This document shows, piece after piece, positions 26,357-53,467 of a stretch of DNA of 64,000 nt (the stretch's first letter is position 1; every line of letters starts with the position of its first letter). The notes under the pieces were generated by a model. That model ran no database searches and was not told the origin of the DNA. It saw only the letters and a list, made by a program, of their open reading frames with translations. Source of the stretch: an uncultured Bacilli bacterium. GTDB taxonomy: Bacteria > Bacillota_I > Bacilli_A > RF39 > UBA660. The position numbers and the translations under genes are program-made. The stretch spans positions 5,840 through 69,839 of the forward strand of contig CAKPDJ010000001.1 of assembly GCA_934148875.1 (NCBI GenBank). Direction: 5' to 3'.

Positions 26357-27247
26357 TTAATTATCTAGACCAATAATTTCTAAAATTCTATTTAAGTCAT
26401 TTGGATTAACAAAATGAAGTTCAATTCTATTATTTTTTATTTTTACTTTTGTACCAAACTTATCTGATAATTCCTCTTCTATAACTTTGTATTCATTGCG
26501 ATTAGTTTCATGTCTAATCTGAGTATTTTTCTTTTCATAAATATTGTCATGAGAAAGATTTTCTACTTCTCTAACACTTAAGCCATCAACTACTATTTTT
26601 TCTGCTAACTGTTTTACTTTTTCATTATCTTCTATTTTACTTAAAACACGTGCATGGCTCATTGATAATTTATTAGCCATAATCATATCTTTAACTTCTT
26701 CAGGTAATGATAATAAACCTAACATATTAGTAATGTGACTTCTACTTTTTCCTAATCGTTCTGCAAGTTTATCTTGTGTTAATGATAACTCATCTATTAG
26801 TTTCTTGTATGCAATAGCTTCTTCTAATGCATTAAGATTTTCTCTTTGTAGGTTTTCAAGTAAAGCTATTTCCATCATATCTTGGTCTGAAAAATCTCTC
26901 AAAATAGCTGGAATTGTTTCTTTTCCTGCTAAAATTGATGCTTTTACTCTACGTTCTCCTGCTATGATTTCATAACCTTTTATACTTTTTTTGGCAATAA
27001 TTGGCTGGAATACACCATGTTCTTTAATTGAATTAGCCAATTCCTGTAGAGCTGTTTCATCAAAATTTTTTCTTGGCTGGTAAGGATTACTTCTTAATTC
27101 AGATAGTGGTAATTCCACTATTTCTTCATTTGTAGATTCATCCATTATTTTTTCTTCAATTTTTTCATAGTCCATTGGTTCATTATTAAATAATTCCTCT
27201 AGGCCTCTACCTAAAGCTTTTCTTCTAGATGTCTCCATTTCGTGCAA
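26357..27247 (-). CDS. parB: Chromosome partitioning protein ParB/Spo0J
   Basis: ParB box (GRGLEELF) and an HTH (GKSRSHITNMLGLLSLP) that is Spo0J-like. It follows parA. Confidence 0.9.
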   Translation of the reverse strand: MHEMETSRRKALGRGLEELFNNEPMDYEKIEEKIMDESTNEEIVELPLSELRSNPYQPRKNFDETALQELANSIKEHGVFQPIIAKKSIKGYEIIAGERRVKASILAGKETIPAILRDFSDQDMMEIALLENLQRENLNALEEAIAYKKLIDELSLTQDKLAERLGKSRSHITNMLGLLSLPEEVKDMIMANKLSMSHARVLSKIEDNEKVKQLAEKIVVDGLSVREVENLSHDNIYEKKNTQIRHETNRNEYKVIEEELSDKFGTKVKIKNNRIELHFVNPNDLNRILEIIGLDN

Positions 27248-28013
27248 TCACTTCCTTTGCTAAATTTATATAAGCTTCTGTTGCCCTATGTTTTGGGTCA
27301 TAAGCTAATATCGGTTTCCCATGAGAAGGTGCTTCTGTTAATTTTACTAATCTTGGAATTATAGTGTTGTATACTCTTTCTTTAAAAAATCTTCTTATAT
27401 CTTCTACTACCTCTAATCCCAATAATGTTCTTGAATCAAGCATTGTTAGTAAGACACCTTCTATATCTAAATTAGGATTTAGATTTTTCTGTGCTAACAT
27501 TATTGTGTTTAATAATTGAGTAATTCCCTCTAATGCAAAAAATTCACATTGAACTGGTATTATAACTGAATCTGATGCTGTTAATGCATTTGTTGTAATT
27601 AATCCTAATGAAGGAGGACAGTCAATTATAATATAGTTGAATAAGTCTTTAATTGGATCTAAATAAGTTTTTAATTGAGCATTTTTGGCAAATCCTTGAT
27701 TAGTTTTACTTTTTTCAATTAATTCCATATCTAGTCCCGCTAAATTAATGGTTGCTGGTAAAACATATAAATTTTTATATTTTGTTTTAATAATTGCTTC
27801 CGTTATTTCACATTTACCTGTTAATACTTCGTGAACACTGTTTGTTATATCTCCCTTGTTAATTCCTACACCTGTTGTTGTATTACCCTGTGGATCTAAA
27901 TCTATTAATAATACTTTTTTTCCTAAATATGCAAGAGATGCAGAAAGGTTGATACTTGTTGTTGTTTTGCCTACGCCACCTTTTTGATTTACTAATGAAA
28001 TTGTTTTTCCCAT
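27225..28013 (-). CDS. parA: Chromosome partitioning ATPase ParA/Soj
   Basis: Deviant Walker A (KGGVGKTTTSINL). Confidence 0.95.
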   Translation of the reverse strand: MGKTISLVNQKGGVGKTTTSINLSASLAYLGKKVLLIDLDPQGNTTTGVGINKGDITNSVHEVLTGKCEITEAIIKTKYKNLYVLPATINLAGLDMELIEKSKTNQGFAKNAQLKTYLDPIKDLFNYIIIDCPPSLGLITTNALTASDSVIIPVQCEFFALEGITQLLNTIMLAQKNLNPNLDIEGVLLTMLDSRTLLGLEVVEDIRRFFKERVYNTIIPRLVKLTEAPSHGKPILAYDPKHRATEAYINLAKEVIARNGDI

Positions 28014-28080: not shown

Positions 28081-28106
28081 AAAAAAAAGTAGAAGTTCTA
28101 CTTTTT
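28081..28106 (-). terminator. Hairpin terminator downstream of parA/upstream region of noc
   Basis: gtagaa-gt-ttctac stem flanked by an A8 run and a T5 run. Confidence 0.5.
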
Positions 28107-29142
28107 AGTTATTTTTATCTATTTTTATAACTACTTGATAGTTGTTTTCAAAGTCTAAATCTTCAGTTGTTATTTTAATTCCTTTATTTTGAATTTTAGC
28201 TATAACACTCTTGATTTCATTAACAGCATCTTCTACAGTATATATTTTTGTTGTTTTTAATAATCTGTCAATATCATTATAATTATATTCTGGTTTTGGT
28301 TCTTTAATTTCTTTGTTTTCTGTTTCAGGCTCATCATCATCAAATTCAGATAATGCTTCTATTATTTCCTTTGTGTCATCTTTAGGAGCTAGTGATAGTG
28401 GAGGAACATCATCATCTTCGATTTCGTTTGATTTATTAGTTATATCAATTGTTGGTTGTTTTGGTTCACTTACTTCTATTTTTGGACCACTTTCTTCTAC
28501 AATTGTAACGCTATCATTAGTTATTGCTGATGGTTGAGATGTTTCACCTTTTAATTCTCTAATTTCATTATCTAGTTCTCTAACTGTCATACGATTATTG
28601 ATTATTTTTCTTAACATATTAATTTGTTCTTGTGGTGTATCTAAGTTTAATAGACTTCTGGCATGGCGTTCAGAAATTTGATCTTTTAGTAGAGCCTCTT
28701 GAATTTCATCAGGTAATGATAACAATCTCATTTTATTAGCTATTGCAGCTTGAGATTTTCCCATAGTACGACCTAGTTCTTCCTGAGTCATTGAATCTAA
28801 TTCAAGAATTTTTTGATATGTTCTTGCTTCTTCTATTGCTGTTAAATCTTTTCTTTGAAGATTTTCTAAAAGGGCTACTTTTGAAGCTTCCTTGTCGTCT
28901 AAATTACGAATTATTGCAGGAATTTTAGTTAAACCTGCCATTGCTGATGCTTTATATCTTCTTTCACCGGCTATTATTTCGTATTTATCTCCTATTTTTC
29001 TGACAATAATTGGCTGAATTACTCCATGTTCTTTGATTGATGCTGATAATTCTCTTAATGCATCTTCATTAAACACTTCACGTGGTTGAAAACGGTTAGG
29101 AATAATGTCATCTAAATATAGTTCTACTACTTCTCTATCCAT
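28105..29142 (-). CDS. noc: Nucleoid occlusion protein Noc (ParB paralogue), atypical
   Basis: PNRFQPR box and a Noc-type HTH (KSQAAIANKMRLLSLP, versus B. subtilis QSTIANKLRLLKLP). It sits at the noc–soj–spo0J position. It has a short N-terminus with no amphipathic helix and a ~70 aa acidic/Pro-rich insertion before the C-terminal domain. Confidence 0.8.
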   Translation of the reverse strand: MDREVVELYLDDIIPNRFQPREVFNEDALRELSASIKEHGVIQPIIVRKIGDKYEIIAGERRYKASAMAGLTKIPAIIRNLDDKEASKVALLENLQRKDLTAIEEARTYQKILELDSMTQEELGRTMGKSQAAIANKMRLLSLPDEIQEALLKDQISERHARSLLNLDTPQEQINMLRKIINNRMTVRELDNEIRELKGETSQPSAITNDSVTIVEESGPKIEVSEPKQPTIDITNKSNEIEDDDVPPLSLAPKDDTKEIIEALSEFDDDEPETENKEIKEPKPEYNYNDIDRLLKTTKIYTVEDAVNEIKSVIAKIQNKGIKITTEDLDFENNYQVVIKIDKNN

Positions 29143-29213
29143 ATATATACCCTCTTTTCATTCTTTCTACTCTTTTATTCTAGGTATATTATATCATATT
29201 TTTGATTTCATAC

Positions 29214-29247
29214 AAGAAAAAAAGCCAAATTTAGATACTTTTGGCTA
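29214..29247 (-). terminator. Hairpin terminator after rsmG
   Basis: agccaaa-tttagatactt-tttggct stem-loop. A T-run follows it on the minus strand. Confidence 0.55.
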
Positions 29248-29265
29248 TATTTTATGTTATTATTA

Positions 29266-31912: not shown

Positions 31913-32209
31913 TTATCTTTTACAAGTTCCTGTTGTATTAGTGCTAAACCAATTACTAAATTGATTTAAATATTCATCTACACCGATTTGTTCTGCTATC
32001 TTTTGTTGACCATCTAAATCATATGTAATACCCTTAGCAGTATAACCAGTAATCTTTTTATCATTGTACATAATTGTTATATTACCTTCATTAGACTTAC
32101 AAACCATTTTTTTTGATGTTGTGTATGTAATACCTATAATTATTGCAGCGATTGCAGCAATAGCTAATACTATACCACCAATTATCATTAATACTTTTTT
32201 CATATACAC
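31913..32209 (-). CDS. Small membrane-anchored protein, function unknown
   Basis: 98 aa protein with an N-terminal TM helix (VLMIIGGIVLAIAAIAAIIIGI). It is inserted between mnmE and mnmG. Confidence 0.45.
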   Translation of the reverse strand: MYMKKVLMIIGGIVLAIAAIAAIIIGITYTTSKKMVCKSNEGNITIMYNDKKITGYTAKGITYDLDGQQKIAEQIGVDEYLNQFSNWFSTNTTGTCKR

Positions 32210-32296: not shown

Positions 32297-32310
32297 ATTT
32301 CCCGGGAAAT
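32297..32310. promoter_or_regulatory. Noc-binding site (NBS), perfect consensus
   Basis: ATTTCCCGGGAAAT sits inside the 24-bp perfect palindrome 32292-32315 (AAATTATTTCCCGGGAAATAATTT), in the mnmE–small ORF intergenic region. Confidence 0.7.
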
Positions 32311-35938: not shown

Positions 35939-36115
35939 TTTTCCACACTTTCCACAATCTTGTTTATAACTTTATCAACCCTGTGATTATTTATTTTTTT
36001 ATTTTTGTGGAAAAGTGTGATATATTCAATATATATAAGGGTTATAATTGTGGAAAAAATTGTTGATAAGTTGTGAATAAAAAAAAAGATAAATTTTACT
36101 ATTTATTTTTCCACA
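35939..36115. promoter_or_regulatory. oriC upstream DnaA-box cluster (incA-like part of bipartite origin)
   Basis: At least five DnaA-box matches in both orientations: TTTTCCACA at 35939-47, 35948-56 and 36107-15, its reverse complement TGTGGAAAA at 36006-14 and 36049-57, and TGTTGATAA at 36061-69. Confidence 0.8.
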
Positions 36116-37586: not shown

Positions 37587-37588
37587 TG

Positions 37589-37686
37589 TGGATAAAATGT
37601 AAAAATAAAACTTTTTTTCCACAGGTAAAATTTTGAAAAAATATGATAAAATAAGGTTGAATGACAGTTATACACAGTTTCCACAG
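37589..37686. promoter_or_regulatory. oriC dnaA–dnaN intergenic DnaA boxes plus AT-rich unwinding region
   Basis: TGTGGATAA (perfect TTATCCACA on the reverse strand) at ~37589-97, TTTTCCACAG at ~37611-20 and GTTTCCACAG at ~37678-86, followed by an (AATAAT)n AT-rich tract. Confidence 0.75.
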
Positions 37687-38968: not shown

Positions 38969-39421
38969 ATGAAAGAATATGAAGTAAATGATGAAACAAT
39001 GGCTATATTAGGAGTTGATGATAATAACTCAAAGGTTTATGAAAATAATAAGGAATATAAAATAGCTAGTAGTAGTTATGAAGTAATGGATTATTCATGT
39101 CAGTATTTTGGTAGTTCTTATTCAGGTAGAGTAGATGGTAGTAAAAGAATATTAGGAGCAAACTATAAATTACCAATTATAGTAGAAGAAAGTTCAGAAA
39201 TGATTTTTTTTCCTATTACTTCACCTGAAAAAAGTGATTGTATATGGATAGCATTAAAATGGTATAAGAGTGTTGAACAAGTGGGTAATACAACATATAT
39301 AATTCTTAAAAATGGCAAGAAAATAAAGACAATTATGTCAAAAAAATCAATAGAAAATCAAGTTATGAGAGCTTCTAGACTTAATTTAATTTTAAATGAG
39401 AGAAAATTAACTAAAATATAG
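38969..39421 (+). CDS. ComK-family competence transcription factor homologue
   Basis: The conserved ComK blocks are present: YEVN…TMAIL, SCQYFGSSYSGR, LPIIVEE, MIFFPITSP, DCIWIAL and ENQV. GGGGG RBS. Confidence 0.7.
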   Translation: MKEYEVNDETMAILGVDDNNSKVYENNKEYKIASSSYEVMDYSCQYFGSSYSGRVDGSKRILGANYKLPIIVEESSEMIFFPITSPEKSDCIWIALKWYKSVEQVGNTTYIILKNGKKIKTIMSKKSIENQVMRASRLNLILNERKLTKI

Positions 39422-45254: not shown

Positions 45255-45265
45255 ATACACTTTTT
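45241..45265 (+). terminator. Hairpin overlapping the gyrA stop codon
   Basis: gtgtatct-gaat-agatacac is a perfect 8-bp stem followed by TTTTT. Confidence 0.55.
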
Positions 45266-45299
45266 AGTTTCACGTGAAACTACTAATTATTTATATTTG

Positions 45300-45339
45300 T
45301 ATAGTTTTCAATTTACTATGTTGAAAACTATATTTTTTT
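45300..45339 (+). terminator. Second terminator-like hairpin after gyrA
   Basis: tatagttttcaa-tttactatg-ttgaaaactata is a perfect 12-bp inverted repeat followed by T7. Confidence 0.55.
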
Positions 45340-45347
45340 ATTAAATT

Positions 45348-45361
45348 ATTTCCCGGGAAAT
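45348..45361. promoter_or_regulatory. Noc-binding site (NBS), perfect consensus
   Basis: ATTTCCCGGGAAAT within the 24-bp palindrome 45343-45366. It lies 12 bp upstream of the first full parS site. Confidence 0.7.
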
Positions 45362-46768
45362 AATTTTCCACAATGTTTCACGTGAAACATTAAACAAGTA
45401 TTTGATTATAGTTATTAAAATTGAAAAATTTTAAATATTAAATTGTATACTGTTAATAAGTAAAATTTTATCAAAATTAAATAGTATTAAGTTTATTGTT
45501 AATAATTATTTAGTTACAATATGTTTAAAAATAATATTTATTATTGTTAGGTTTAGTAATCAATAATTTAATAGATTATTATTTTATGTTTATATTTGTA
45601 TTAGGCGATTGTTTTTTAGTTTCCACAGTGTTTCACGTGAAACATAGATTTCTAATAATATTTTTGTTCTTAAATATTTATTATAGGAGACATTATAAAA
45701 TTTATTATTTACTAAATTTAAATGCATTTGTTATTTTTATTAAAAATTACATTCTATCTAATTTAAATTTTCATAATTTCCACAATGTTTCACGTGAAAC
45801 ATTGATAATTTAATAGTTATTTTTTATTAATCAATCTACAGTTATTATATAATTTTAATTACTATAAGTAATGTTAATATAGTAAACATTATATTGTTGA
45901 TTAGTTTCAATTTTCAATGATGAGTATCATTAAATAAGGTATGTCTATAATAACATAATGAGTTATTATAGATTAACCAATATAGAATATATAATACTTG
46001 AATTTTCCACATGTTTCACGTGAAACATTGTACGAATATTAAAATATAATTTATTATTTATAATAACAATTATTACTAAAGATAAAAGGTTTATTTAATA
46101 TAATTATAGATCAAGCTTTATTGATTAATAAATATTATTGTTTATTATACTTAATAAATTTATTATTAATTGTGTTAATTTGTTTTTTATATTGAATTTA
46201 TATAAATTATAAAATATCCACAATGTTTCACGTGAAACATAGCTTATTTTGTTACATATAATATTAGATTTTTAAAATATTAGTAGTTATTTATTGTATC
46301 AAATATAATTTATAAATTAAATCTAATAAATATAGATGCTTTTTAAATTTATTAAGATGATATGTATTTTATTTATGAAATTTTAGTGTTAATTAATATA
46401 ATTTCCACATGTTTCACGTGAAACATAGATAATTTAACAGTTGTTTTTTAATTAATCTACAATTATTATATAATTTTAATTACTATAAGTAATGTTAATA
46501 TAATAAACATTATATATTGTTGATTAATTTTAAATTTTAATGATAAGTATCATTAAATAAGGTATGTCTATAATAACATAATGAGTTATTATAGATTAAC
46601 CAATATTGAATATATAATACTTGAATTTTCCACATGTTTCACGTGAAACATATGAATATATCTATTAAATAAGATAAATATCTTTAAAAATTAAAAAAAT
46701 AATGTAATGTTTCACGTGAAACATAAAAATAGTTGCTCTTTTTATAAAAATATAATATTATAATTATC

Positions 46769-46847
46769 GTGCAATAAGTATTAATGGAACCAGGTCAGGA
46801 TTGGAAGATAGCAGCCTTAACGTTCTATACTTATGTGCACTTTTTTT
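46769..46847 (+). ncRNA. ffs: Small (4.5S-type) signal recognition particle RNA
   Basis: Conserved domain IV sequence GGAACCAGGTCAGGATTGGAAGATAGCAGCC. The 5' (GTGCAATAAGTA) and 3' (TACTTATGTGCAC) ends pair, and a T7 terminator follows. TATAAT boxes lie at 46751-56 and 46759-64. Confidence 0.7.
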
Positions 46848-47308: not shown

Positions 47309-47365
47309 TTATAGTTAGAATAAATTAGTTTTAATGGTATAATATAAGTGTTTTGGAGGTGCATT

Positions 47366-49069
47366 ATGTCTTATCAAGCTTTATATAGAAAATATAGACC
47401 ATCTACTTTAGAAGATGTAATTGGCCAAGATGTTGTTATTAAAATTTTAAAAAATGCAATTATTAATAATAAAATTTGCCATGCTTATATGTTTTCAGGA
47501 CCACGTGGGATTGGAAAAACCTCTATTGCGAAAATTTTAGCTAAAACTGTTAACTGTTTAAATTTGGATAATGGTGATGCTTGTGGAAAATGTGAAAATT
47601 GTTTATCTATAAGTAATAATTCTAATCCTGATATTATAGAAATAGATGCGGCTTCTAATAATGGAGTAGATGAGATTCGCGAAATTAAAAGTAAAATTAA
47701 TTTAGTGCCTAATCAATTAAAATATAAAGTGTACATTATTGATGAGGTACATATGTTGTCTATTGGTGCATTTAATGCACTATTAAAAACTTTGGAAGAA
47801 CCACCAGAGCATGTAATTTTTATATTAGCTACAACAGATTTACATAAGGTTCCTGTAACTATCATTTCTAGATGTCAATGTCTTGAATTTCATCGTATTA
47901 GTTGTGATGATATAACAAAAAGACTTAAGTATATATCTGATAAAGAAAATATTAATATTGATGATAGTGTTTTAAAAAGAATAGCTGAATTATCAGATGG
48001 TGGTATGCGTGATGCGGTTGGTATGTTAGATAAGTTAAATGCTTATTCTAATTCAAATATCACAATGGATGATTTTGAAAAAGTAAATGGTATTGTGTCA
48101 TTATCTGAAAGAATAGAATTTTTGGATAATATTATGAATGGTAACATAGATCATGTCATTGAATTTATAGATTACATTTATGATAATGGTAAAGATTTTA
48201 TAGTATTTGTCCAAGATATGATTAATTTATGTAAAGATTTATGTATTTCGTATTATATTGAAAATGAAAAAAAATATGATATTGATTTACTATTATCTTT
48301 TTTAAAATCTTTAAATAATACTTTAAAAAATACAGAATTTTCTTCAAATATTAGAATAACATTAGAAGTTGAGTTGTTATCGTTTATTAATAATCAAATT
48401 CTTAACGATAATAATACAATTATTGATAATAATTCTCAAAAGAAAGAAAAAAATGCTGTTAATGATTTGAAAATTGATAATAATGGAATACAAAACGAAG
48501 TTATTGATAATAGTTATCAACAAATTAATAAAAAAGAGGAAAAAATTATTTCCCGGGAAATAATTAATCCACAATCTGTTGATGATTCAAGTGCTTATCA
48601 GGAAGTAGTTGATATTATTATTAACAATTGTTTTGCTAGAGCCAATAAGAAAAATAAGTTGGACTTTGAAAATAATTGGAATAAGCTTAATGATTATGCT
48701 CTTGATAATGAGTATGGTGCTGTTGCATGTTACATTTCTGATGGCATAGTGAGAGCTGTTGGTGAAAATGAGGTTATTATTTCATTTGCTTATGAATCTA
48801 TGGTTGACAGAGGAGTTAAGATAATTAATAAGATAGAAAATTTATTAGAAAAAATTTATAGTAAACATTATGATGTAGCGTTAATAACGAATGATAAATG
48901 GAACCATGAAAAAGAAATATTTATTTTGAATATGAATAATAAGGTAAAATATGAATATAAAGAATTACCTAATAATAATATAGAAAATAAACCTTCATTA
49001 AAAAGCGATAATTCAATTGCTGAAGAAGCGATTGAATTGTTTGGTGAAGATATGATATCAATAAATTAG
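47366..49069 (+). CDS. dnaX: DNA polymerase III subunit tau/gamma (DnaX)
   Basis: AAA+ clamp-loader N-terminus (YRPSTLEDVIGQD…GPRGIGKTS), a zinc module (CGKCENC) and an SRC motif (TIISRCQ). The ATG at 47366 with a GGAGGTG RBS is preferred over the track's GTG at 47348. The variable linker contains an in-frame NBS palindrome. Confidence 0.9.
   Translation: MSYQALYRKYRPSTLEDVIGQDVVIKILKNAIINNKICHAYMFSGPRGIGKTSIAKILAKTVNCLNLDNGDACGKCENCLSISNNSNPDIIEIDAASNNGVDEIREIKSKINLVPNQLKYKVYIIDEVHMLSIGAFNALLKTLEEPPEHVIFILATTDLHKVPVTIISRCQCLEFHRISCDDITKRLKYISDKENINIDDSVLKRIAELSDGGMRDAVGMLDKLNAYSNSNITMDDFEKVNGIVSLSERIEFLDNIMNGNIDHVIEFIDYIYDNGKDFIVFVQDMINLCKDLCISYYIENEKKYDIDLLLSFLKSLNNTLKNTEFSSNIRITLEVELLSFINNQILNDNNTIIDNNSQKKEKNAVNDLKIDNNGIQNEVIDNSYQQINKKEEKIISREIINPQSVDDSSAYQEVVDIIINNCFARANKKNKLDFENNWNKLNDYALDNEYGAVACYISDGIVRAVGENEVIISFAYESMVDRGVKIINKIENLLEKIYSKHYDVALITNDKWNHEKEIFILNMNNKVKYEYKELPNNNIENKPSLKSDNSIAEEAIELFGEDMISIN
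48548..48561. promoter_or_regulatory. Noc-binding site (NBS) embedded in the dnaX coding sequence
   Basis: ATTTCCCGGGAAAT within the 22-bp palindrome 48544-48565. It translates as …KIISREII… in the poorly conserved DnaX linker and is followed by TTAATCCACAAT. Confidence 0.65.
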
Positions 49070-53453: not shown

Positions 53454-53467
53454 ATTTCCCGGGAAAT
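53454..53467. promoter_or_regulatory. Noc-binding site (NBS), perfect consensus
   Basis: ATTTCCCGGGAAAT within the 26-bp palindrome 53448-53473. It starts at the rsmI stop codon, upstream of pth. Confidence 0.7.

Follow-up and report, generated by a model that had tools for sequence, protein, structure and literature searches.

The noc gene found in the 64-kb stretch of DNA analysed here (hereafter the window) encodes a protein that probably works differently from textbook Noc. In the current model of Noc function the N-terminal helix is indispensable: CTP-gated clamps spread from NBS sites, drag the DNA to the membrane and crowd out the divisome. The homologue described here would be a natural separation-of-function variant, in which the membrane anchor and the auto-inhibitory helix have been discarded, the charge of the linker has been inverted and the clamp has been kept. 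Judged by its sequence, it is on balance likely to be an NBS-specific CTP clamp that would not bind the membrane itself and would act in the origin domain. The host appears to be an uncultured, walled, spore-former-like lineage of gut Bacilli, the genome bins of which carry the label 'Tenericutes/Bacilli bacterium'. The clade is large: it spans 80 species or more and no fewer than 145 clusters at 50% identity, and its members are frequent in the guts of humans and animals; across it the predicted NBS-specific clamp is kept under clear purifying selection.

The order of genes at the locus, rsmG-noc-soj-spo0J, is of the B. subtilis type, noc adjoining soj-spo0J downstream of rsmG (gidB):

28105..29142, minus strand: noc orthologue of 345 aa that lacks the membrane-targeting helix and has an acidic linker (ORF call, HMM, PDB and Foldseek matches)
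27225..28013, minus strand: soj (ParA ATPase), directly downstream of noc
26357..27247, minus strand: spo0J (canonical ParB), with the LGRGL ParA-contact motif at its N-terminus, a ParB_C domain and, at the first specificity position, R

Within the noc product four parts can be told apart:

28852..29142, minus strand: CTP-binding N-terminal domain, residues 1-97, which starts directly at strand beta1; alpha1 (MTS) and alpha2 are absent
28549..28851, minus strand: helix-turn-helix DNA-binding domain, residues 98-198, with Noc-type Q131, K137, S142 and R159
28279..28548, minus strand: acidic, Pro/Ser/Thr-rich disordered linker, residues 199-288 (composition, pLDDT, column conservation)
28105..28278, minus strand: IDxLLK short helix and Noc-type C-terminal dimerisation domain (CTD; one helix, two strands), residues 289-345 plus stop

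Ahead of the PNRFQPR box, which begins at P15, the protein has 14 residues (MDREVVELYLDDII) compared with 40 in B. subtilis Noc (alignment with NOC_BACSU); the earlier note had rightly described this N-terminus as short, although its count of 15 was one too high. With only 14 residues before the box, both the membrane-targeting helix alpha1 and the helix alpha2 must be missing. In agreement with this, residue 4 of the query pairs with residue 27-29 of the solved Noc proteins (29 in B. subtilis Noc), and the AlphaFold2 model starts at strand beta1 (residues 5-9). The N-terminus before box I is acidic, with a net charge of -4, and amphipathic-helix prediction revealed neither a basic nor an aromatic face; in all 265 relatives the charge of this segment lies between -5 and -1, none being net-positive. 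A search for a substitute anchor in the window protein and the 265 relatives, by hydrophobic moment, Kyte-Doolittle profile and terminal basic helices, yielded no amphipathic or transmembrane anchor, the sole hits, besides the outlier P0199, falling within folded domains or the final strand of the CTD. In P0199 the C-terminus is aberrantly hydrophobic and the family CTD is missing, so that this outlier is probably a bad gene model.

An N-terminal amphipathic helix was present in all the homologues examined by Adams 2015 (PMC4331003), and helix alpha2, conserved among Noc homologues, keeps alpha1 auto-inhibited (PMC8429893). Engineered B. subtilis NocNdelta10 binds neither cell membranes nor liposomes (PMC4331003; PMC8429893). 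The suggestion made at the outset, that this Noc has no canonical anchor or else anchors by a different mechanism, is supported; the sequence fits both options and leans towards no direct membrane binding by the protein itself. A second, canonical Noc may be encoded elsewhere in this genome, beyond the 84 kb examined. A wall-less lifestyle was considered as the cause of the loss of the MTS and rejected for this organism, since genes for a class A PBP, LysM/M23 proteins, GerQ, SpoVT, SpoVG, YabP and DivIC flank the window. Our search of the literature found no report of a Noc devoid of MTS, or of Noc in Mollicutes-related orders or in Clostridioides.

The perfect NBS sites on which the initial reading relied are indeed present. 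The window holds four copies of ATTTCCCGGGAAAT (at 32297, 45348, 48548 and 53454), compared with about 0.16 expected by chance with up to two mismatches, and none of 100 shuffles gave four. These four sites account for all CCCGGG hexamers of the window and have a 22-bp palindrome, AATTATTTCCCGGGAAATAATT, in common. The sites and the neighbouring parS array are as follows:

32297..32310, unstranded: NBS 1, perfect, in the spacer that separates mnmE from the ORF of a 98-aa membrane protein, itself upstream of mnmG
45348..45361, unstranded: NBS 2, perfect, with a DnaA box 2 nt further on (TTTTCCACA, 45364-45372) and, after the box, a parS (45374-45389)
48548..48561, unstranded: NBS 3, perfect, inside the dnaX coding sequence, followed after 3 nt by a DnaA-box-like TAATCCACA (48565-48573)
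53454..53467, unstranded: NBS 4, perfect, intergenic between a TP_methylase (rsmI-like) gene and pth
45364..46723, unstranded: array of eight perfect parS, non-coding, downstream of gyrA

All four NBS lie between -3.9 and +17.5 kb from dnaA, and none was found in the other ~62 kb of the 84 kb of this organism that were examined. Their positions recur in relatives: a perfect NBS occupies the spot syntenic with NBS 1, upstream of mnmG, in 22 of the 80 species loci, the NBS-DnaA box-parS module of NBS 2 is found again in relatives, and the position of NBS 4 is conserved in relatives as well as in L207 and L208. Seven of the eight parS in the array are directly preceded by a DnaA-box-like TTCCACA or ATCCACA.

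An exact scan of metagenomes with the 22-mer allowed at least 219 NBS to be mapped, among the matches listed, on at least 120 stretches; the extended flanks are present in 166 of the 219, so that about a quarter of the cores lack them and would be missed outside the stretches fetched. Among the matches listed, 219 of the 224 CCCGGG hexamers in the 120 related stretches sit within an NBS, 100 of the 120 NBS-bearing stretches are syntenic with the present origin region, and contigs of 150-640 kb each contain a single NBS neighbourhood. Again among the matches listed, 26 of the 219 sites lie in the dnaX orthologue, 22 abut a DnaA box (1.2 expected) and 34 are no more than 60 bp away from a parS centre, the distances peaking at 28-30 bp. 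Composite sites, with a DnaA box or a parS, make up only 10-16% of the matches listed, most NBS being solitary. Judging from the 84-kb stretch and the matches listed, NBS sites thus appear to be few, perfect and largely confined to the origin region. This clustering at the origin adds to what the earlier note had described.

As the CTP-binding domain, the Noc-type reading residues and the CTD are all kept and the NBS are conserved, the homologue should, like canonical Noc, form a CTP-gated clamp that is loaded at NBS. The sites are few, perfect and within ~20 kb of oriC, and some of them touch DnaA boxes or parS, which points to an origin-domain nucleoprotein complex as the most likely outcome; such a complex would act on replication initiation, on segregation or on how the origin is organised, and would not tether much of the chromosome to the membrane. 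The acidic linker would be the effector part, where a partner might dock or which might work as a spacer, by electrostatic or entropic means. It is tempting to speculate further, and we regard it as a possible though tentative scenario, that a tethering division inhibitor with chromosome-wide sites has been repurposed into an anchorless, origin-restricted clamp that loads next to DnaA and ParB on composite NBS-DnaA box-parS modules arrayed between gyrA and dnaX, and whose acidic tail regulates initiation or shapes the partition complex. If this were true, the repurposed Noc would join DnaA and ParB as a third origin-organising factor.

The linker extends from residue 199 to about 288-300 and is thus about 90-100 aa long; an acidic insertion before the C-terminal dimerisation region had been recognized from the start, but had been put at ~70 residues. 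It contains 29% D/E and 11% P, carries a net charge of -17 and is predicted by AlphaFold2 to be disordered (pLDDT 42-64), whereas the equivalent linker of B. subtilis Noc is basic, with 13 aa and a net charge of +5. In the relatives its length ranges from 15 to 549 aa. Column conservation reveals weakly conserved islands (IVEExGP at 214-220, DDxP at 244-247 and a hydrophobic-E-x-L at 261-264), and longer relatives have recurrent motifs (VDIxxIRxxAxDI, DLDSLLK, YKFVP and KFINYGEID) well over shuffled expectation. DLDSLLK and IDxLLK may resemble the FtsZ C-terminal peptide, an idea of which no use is made here.

Alternatively, the protein may still be a tethering nucleoid occlusion factor whose anchor is supplied in trans. 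A linker motif (such as IVEExGP, DDxP...ExL or IDxLLK) would then bind either a component of the divisome or some protein of the membrane, and the clamps would in this way still reach the membrane or block the Z-ring directly. The islands within an otherwise freely drifting linker and the recurrent motifs of the longer relatives would be consistent with such docking, as would a divisome context of the conventional walled kind, in which genes for a class A PBP and for DivIC lie close by. Moreover, a heterologous helix can stand in for the MTS of Noc (PMC4331003), which implies that the anchor is modular, and Pang 2017 (PMC5540599) argues that Noc needs species-specific contacts. However, no partner came to light, no neighbouring gene is conserved besides soj and spo0J, and in relatives with a short linker, the subgroup to which the present protein belongs, the motifs are only weakly marked. 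In addition, four origin-proximal sites could tether or occlude little of the nucleoid. We consider an anchor in trans rather unlikely.

It could also be imagined that nucleoid occlusion is no longer needed and that the protein is a decaying relic, which has lost its MTS, whose linker grows by slippage and whose DNA binding persists by inertia. The variable length of the linker and the free drift of its sequence would fit such a view, but its acidity is kept in 264 of 264 members, and the folded domains, together with the CTP and specificity residues, are strongly conserved over at least 145 clusters (50% identity) and 80 species. In particular, the CTP motifs GERR (59-62) and ENLQR (93-97) are invariant across 132 relatives, and the CTD is conserved across the family. 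The NBS, for their part, remain perfect and positionally conserved even within the dnaX coding sequence, where the encoded proteins share 37-45% identity. Decay of this kind is very improbable.

The assignment to Noc and not to a second conventional ParB rests on several lines of evidence. Sequence searches of the PDB gave Noc (7NG0, 7NFU and 7OL9) as best matches at 188-206 bits, followed by Spo0J at 165-177, and Foldseek with the predicted model placed Noc 7NFU first, with 50% identity. The modelled DNA-binding domain superimposes on that of the Noc DBD-NBS complex 6Y93 with a TM score of 0.91 and an rmsd of 1.4-1.6. The CTD aligns with that of B. subtilis Noc (RIAMNTIRQSL...EEFEEYIQLTIRIPK) and is modelled with high scores (pLDDT 90-94; helix 303-319, strands 324-330 and 335-341). 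Overall identity to B. subtilis Noc is less discriminating, at 41-46% compared with an only slightly lower 39% for the window's own Spo0J. The profile TIGR04285 (nucleoid_noc) gave 288.5 bits, which does not reach the curated cutoff of 315, compared with 233 for the window's Spo0J; the linker insertion interrupts the match, which therefore covers no more than profile positions 1-210 of 255. Pfam detected ParB_N and HTH_ParB in the homologue and no ParB_C.

At the four specificity positions (Q173, K179, K184 and R201 in Caulobacter ParB numbering) the helix-turn-helix alignment gives Q-K-S-R, compared with QKKR in Noc and RTAG in ParB, so that three of the four are Noc-type; in 132 relatives Q and R do not vary, and conservation of K reaches at least 90%. 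A single K, at 179 or 184, suffices (Jalal 2020, PMC7383237). The parS-type residues that would have made the protein an ordinary ParB were not found. A conventional ParB binding parS, and for that reason devoid of the Noc N-terminus, is what the NCBI records suggest, in which the family is currently mis-named as generic ParB ('ParB/RepB/Spo0J family partition protein'); the score under the Noc HMM cutoff and the dense parS array close by could be cited in its favour. Nevertheless, the protein has Q131 where parS binders, like the window's own ParB, invariably have R, it has R159 and not G or S at position 201, it lacks the LGRGL ParA-contact peptide of the adjacent Spo0J, its CTD is Noc-type without a Pfam ParB_C match, and perfect NBS sites are conserved. 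As all features of a ParB are found in the neighbouring gene at 26357-27247, parS specificity of the Noc homologue was ruled out, and we deem this identity extremely improbable.

The shortness of the N-terminus is written into the DNA upstream of the gene:

29143..29265, minus strand: rsmG-noc intergenic region, with an RBS, in-frame stops, an out-of-frame ATG and, by eye, a -10-like element and a hairpin

The absence of an in-frame upstream start, claimed in the earlier note, was confirmed: in-frame TGA and TAG codons lie at -18 and -27 nt from the noc ATG and exclude a longer N-terminus under code 11 and code 4 alike, the other ATG (29161-29159) is 19 nt away and hence out of frame, and the RBS AAGAGGG (29150-29156) is suitably spaced from the start codon. 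Inspection of the spacer by eye also showed an extended -10-like TGaTATAAT and, behind rsmG, a hairpin; both are weak evidence, as a consensus promoter and terminator scan listed neither (the -35 matches at 3 of 6 positions and the hairpin loop has 9 nt). Between 14 and 21 residues precede the PNRFQPR box in all 80 GTDB species loci and in all ~265 homologue clusters, and the open frame upstream of the noc start measures only 14-48 codons in the 80 species. Longer N-termini occasionally annotated in relatives (MKRGY... extensions) proved to be translated RBS sequence. That a sequencing, assembly or gene-calling error has shortened a normal Noc, conceivable a priori for metagenome assemblies and nothing more, has next to no likelihood and is already refuted by the in-frame stops, the properly spaced RBS, the occurrence of the exact 345-aa protein on 21 independent contigs and the spread of the short form, with stops upstream, over independent assemblies of 80 species.

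An origin-acting clamp without membrane anchor could reveal roles of Noc apart from membrane tethering, for which S. aureus hints at replication initiation. The clustering of sites around oriC, where they are at times fused with DnaA boxes and parS, gives a definite starting point, and one open to testing.

Among known systems, the closest are the Noc proteins of B. subtilis and Geobacillus thermoleovorans (7NFU, 7NG0, 7OL9 and 6Y93), with which the present protein shares the gene position, the NTD-DBD-CTD fold and 42-50% identity, as well as GERR, ENLQR, the Q/K/R specificity residues, the NBS core ATTTCCCGGGAAAT and a Noc-type CTD. It differs from them by the absence of the N-terminal 26 residues (alpha1 MTS and alpha2), by the replacement of K184 by S and by a linker of about 90-100 acidic residues in place of the 13 basic ones of B. 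subtilis Noc. Furthermore, B. subtilis-type Noc has ~70 NBS over the chromosome outside the terminus, whereas those found here in the 84 kb examined are few, perfect and clustered at the origin. The laboratory mutant NocNdelta10 (Adams 2015; Jalal 2021) likewise lacks the membrane-targeting helix and still binds NBS and CTP and closes as a clamp; it is, however, non-functional and keeps alpha2 and the basic linker, whereas the present form is natural and conserved across its clade, has lost alpha2 and has gained an acidic linker. Conservation of the anchorless form across the clade implies a function.

S. aureus Noc, which restrains DnaA-dependent initiation and for which binding to NBS and membrane is insufficient for function (Pang 2017, PMC5540599), provides a precedent for a role in replication, but it keeps the amphipathic helix and chromosome-wide NBS and, unlike here, no composite NBS-DnaA box sites have been reported for it. 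Finally, ParB/Spo0J (6SDK, 1VZ0 and 6T1F) shares this fold and, as a CTP-gated sliding clamp, loads on palindromes close to the origin, and in the clustering of its sites near oriC the Noc homologue is ParB-like. ParB nonetheless has R at position 173 (Q here), a small residue at 201, a ParA-activating N-terminal peptide, ParB_C and parS as its site, and a separate, canonical ParB is encoded in the window.

On the evidence of the sequence, the start codon of the Noc-like gene is well defined and the short N-terminus of its product is real. The gene occupies the same gene order as noc in B. subtilis, its immediate neighbourhood being:

26357-27247, spo0J, beside soj
27225-28013, soj, flanking the Noc-like gene on the side opposite rsmG
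28105-29142, minus strand, Noc-like open reading frame, 345 aa
29266-29964, rsmG (gidB), flanking the Noc-like gene

Further upstream are mnmG, mnmE, jag, yidC and rnpA, with dnaA, dnaN, recF, gyrB and gyrA across the origin (window GC content, 26%). A ComK-family gene (38969-39421, plus strand; Pfam PF06338, E = 3.6e-40) lies inside the core origin cluster, between dnaN and recF. A Shine–Dalgarno motif, AAGAGGG, ends 7 nt 5′ of the ATG, and in-frame stops at 18 nt (TGA) and 27 nt (TAG) close the upstream frame, which excludes a longer N-terminus even under decoding of TGA as Trp. The earlier note was therefore right about the ribosome-binding site and the want of an in-frame upstream start, the upstream ATG being out of frame; of its 15 residues before the PNRFQPR box, the shortness stands, while the count is 14. 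An assembly error hiding a longer N-terminus is ruled out, since 21 independent metagenome contigs encode an identical protein. The box is preceded by 14–21 residues in almost all relatives (the closest 120 clusters and the best 150 50%-identity cluster representatives). Among 80 GTDB species representatives, the start lies at −14 to −21 relative to the box in nearly all, and the open frame 5′ of the box is only 14–48 codons long. By eye, the 123-bp rsmG–noc spacer contains a hairpin 3′ of rsmG together with an extended −10-like element (TGaTATAAT); neither was listed by a consensus scanner over this spacer, and both are therefore given little weight.

The relatives are uncultured gut bins with labels including Bacilli bacterium, Tenericutes bacterium, Mycoplasma sp. 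CAG:611, Acholeplasma sp. CAG:878, Clostridium sp. CAG:433 and Candidatus Scybalousia. Since genes for a class A PBP, LysM/M23, GerQ, SpoVT, SpoVG, YabP and DivIC flank the window in the same organism, the host is a walled lineage resembling spore-formers rather than a wall-less mollicute.

Alignment with B. subtilis Noc shows that the protein is without the first 26 residues, which hold the amphipathic membrane-targeting helix (residues 1–10) and helix α2, and its AlphaFold2 model opens directly at strand β1, bearing out the earlier claim that the targeting helix is lacking. In apo-Noc, α2, which is conserved among Noc homologues, helps to keep the amphipathic helix auto-inhibited (PMC8429893). 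The engineered B. subtilis variant NocNΔ10, devoid of the targeting helix, loses membrane association and function (Adams et al., PMC4331003); it retains CTP binding and clamp closure but fails to bind liposomes (Jalal et al. 2021, PMC8429893). Every Noc homologue that Adams et al. looked at had the targeting helix. Amphipathic-helix prediction on the N-terminus gave no anchor candidate: the net charge of the 14 residues is −4 and, among 265 relatives, ranges from −5 to −1, never being positive. Nor was a substitute anchor found by hydrophobic-moment and hydropathy scans of the protein and the 265 relatives, in which all candidates lay within folded domains or the last strand of the C-terminal dimerisation domain (CTD), a single outlier having an aberrant C-terminus. 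By sequence, the protein thus possesses no intrinsic membrane anchor.

The linker preceding the CTD, predicted by AlphaFold2 to be disordered, is conserved as an acidic segment. It comprises about 90–100 residues (net charge −17, 29% D/E), as compared with 13 basic residues in B. subtilis Noc (EQGQRKPKPRRKA, net +5); an acidic insertion had been recognized previously, although its length was put too low, at ~70 residues. The linker is net-negative in 264 of 264 family sequences, with lengths of 15–549 aa, and its sequence drifts freely save for weak islands (IVEExGP, DDxP and hydrophobic-E-x-L) and an IDxLLK helix directly N-terminal to the CTD. Longer linkers of relatives contain the recurrent motifs VDIxxIRxxAxDI, DLDSLLK, YKFVP and KFINYGEID. 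In the relatives' protein clusters P0121–P0270, the linker between the DNA-binding domain (DBD) and the CTD is extended by low-complexity N/S/T/P/D/E sequence to as much as 549 aa, in proteins of up to 798 aa. DNA as well as anionic lipid would repel a tail this acidic, a further point against binding of the membrane by the protein itself.

That the protein is Noc by descent is supported by evidence of several kinds. Its best matches among solved structures are the Noc proteins of G. thermoleovorans and B. subtilis (188–206 bits, versus 141–177 bits for Spo0J/ParB). With the AlphaFold2 model (132 sequences, mean pLDDT 80), the top Foldseek match is apo-Noc 7NFU, and the modelled DBD superimposes on the Noc–NBS complex 6Y93 with a TM score of 0.91. 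Identity to B. subtilis Noc (NOC_BACSU, confirmed by exact look-up) is 42% across the CTP-binding domain and DBD, and the CTD is clearly related. The switch of ParB from parS to NBS involves Q173, K179, K184 and R201, a single lysine at 179 or 184 being sufficient (Jalal et al. 2020, PMC7383237). Here the corresponding residues are Q131, K137, S142 and R159, three of the four being NBS-type with S142 in place of K184; Q131, K137 and R159 rule out a conventional ParB with parS-type residues. Among 132 relatives, the specificity Q and R are invariant, as are the CTP-motif residues GERR and ENLQR, and the K is at least 90% conserved. Unlike the Noc-like protein, the window's Spo0J, a canonical ParB, has R at the first specificity position, an LGRGL ParA-contact peptide and Pfam ParB_C. 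The curated Noc model TIGR04285 gives 288.5 bits, short of the 315-bit cutoff, aligning profile positions 1–210 of 255 because the linker insertion breaks the alignment; hence NCBI records name these proteins generic ParB.

As the note had stated, perfect NBS are present: the window contains four perfect ATTTCCCGGGAAAT sites, versus about 0.16 expected at up to two mismatches. They are the only CCCGGG hexamers in the 64 kb and share the 22-bp palindrome AATTATTTCCCGGGAAATAATT. Within 80 species loci (509 kb), 22 of 24 such hexamers are NBS, and a perfect site occupies the same position upstream of mnmG in 22 of the 80. Scanned for the 22-mer, metagenome contigs yielded at least 120 stretches (873 kb), in which 219 of 224 hexamers are NBS among the matches listed. 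Outside NBS, CCCGGG is almost absent from these 25–29% GC genomes. Fixed positions recur in relatives: the gyrA/tadA-like gap, inside dnaX, the recF/gyrB gap, around mnmE and the rsmI-like/pth gap. The perfect palindrome at 48548-48561 lies inside the dnaX coding sequence (47348-49069), and 26 of the 219 NBS among the matches listed fall within its orthologue; retention while DnaX proteins share only 37–45% identity implies that the DNA site is itself under selection. The recurring, conserved pattern has the signature of selection for a working protein–site pair. The NBS at 32297 lies 88 bp upstream of the start of a 98-aa open reading frame (31913-32209, minus strand) between mnmE and mnmG, which has an N-terminal transmembrane segment and gave no match in a Pfam search.

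In a pattern that the note had not remarked, the sites cluster around oriC, marked by DnaA-box clusters at 35939-36115 and 37587-37676: relative to the dnaA start they lie at −3.9, +9.4, +12.6 and +17.5 kb, with none in the window's other ~40 kb or in 10 kb past each end on contigs of the same organism. Among the matches listed, 100 of 120 NBS-bearing metagenome stretches show origin-region synteny, most of the remainder being too short for classification or adjoining origin genes, and contigs of 150–640 kb carry one NBS neighbourhood each. Since the full 22-mer is present at 76% of the NBS cores in these stretches, among the matches listed, scattered sites, if common, should have been detected. 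Some sites are composite. The window NBS at 45348 is followed by the DnaA box TTTTCCACA, a form also found at oriC, and then by parS, and that at 48548 by TAATCCACA. The features concerned are:

45348-45389, NBS–DnaA box–parS module, the single one in the window
45260-46730, parS array in 1.5 kb of AT-rich non-coding DNA from gyrA to the SRP RNA gene; eight perfect 16-bp parS (TGTTTCACGTGAAACA) and one copy with two mismatches
46765-46846, plus strand, bacterial small SRP RNA (Rfam RF00169, 51.4 bits), directly after the array and before a tadA-like deaminase gene
350-1472 of L093, 210-1766 of L098 and 192-1300 of L131 (related metagenome contigs), arrays of NBS–DnaA box (TTATCCACA)–parS modules between gyrA and tadA

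In such relatives the module is repeated 4–5 times at about 200–400 bp, with a fixed NBS-to-parS centre distance of 28–30 bp. Among the matches listed, a DnaA box abuts 22 of 219 NBS (1.2 expected) and a parS centre lies within 60 bp of 34, peaking at 28–30 bp, composite sites thus being a minority. Within the window's parS array a segment of about 620 bp is duplicated, and a DnaA-box-like TTTCCACA, TTTTCCACA or ATATCCACA stands immediately 5′ of seven out of eight perfect parS; many relatives conserve the array at the corresponding locus. Such a dense DnaA box–parS array beside oriC is unusual.

The sequences show a protein of ParB fold and NBS type, in which the CTP motifs are intact and a dimerisation domain is present, and which has conserved cognate sites. 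It would load at NBS as a CTP-gated, Noc-like clamp, would not bind lipid by itself, and its linker may be the effector, acting as a docking site or a spacer. Because NBS are few, lie close to oriC and in places are interspersed with DnaA boxes and parS, the protein probably works in the origin domain; candidate roles are to organise the origin, to segregate it or to control the initiation of replication. S. aureus Noc, which restrains DnaA-dependent initiation (PMC5540599), offers a precedent for the last. The main rival explanation has the linker bind a partner that still takes the complex to the membrane or divisome; in the same S. aureus study (PMC5540599), NBS and membrane binding were insufficient for function, species-specific contacts being needed. 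A relic, a second parS-binding ParB and an artefact are each contradicted by the data.

In the literature searched, which took in part of the journals, we found no natural Noc without the membrane-targeting helix, no Noc in Mollicutes-related Bacilli orders and no NBS–DnaA box–parS modules. Canonical Noc proteins possess the targeting helix and α2, treated in the literature as defining, and their NBS are widely distributed along the chromosome, the vicinity of the terminus excepted (PMC7383237; PMC5540599). The window protein has neither helix and falls below the curated cutoff, and its sites are probably distributed differently; accordingly, it is a variant of Noc rather than a plain member.
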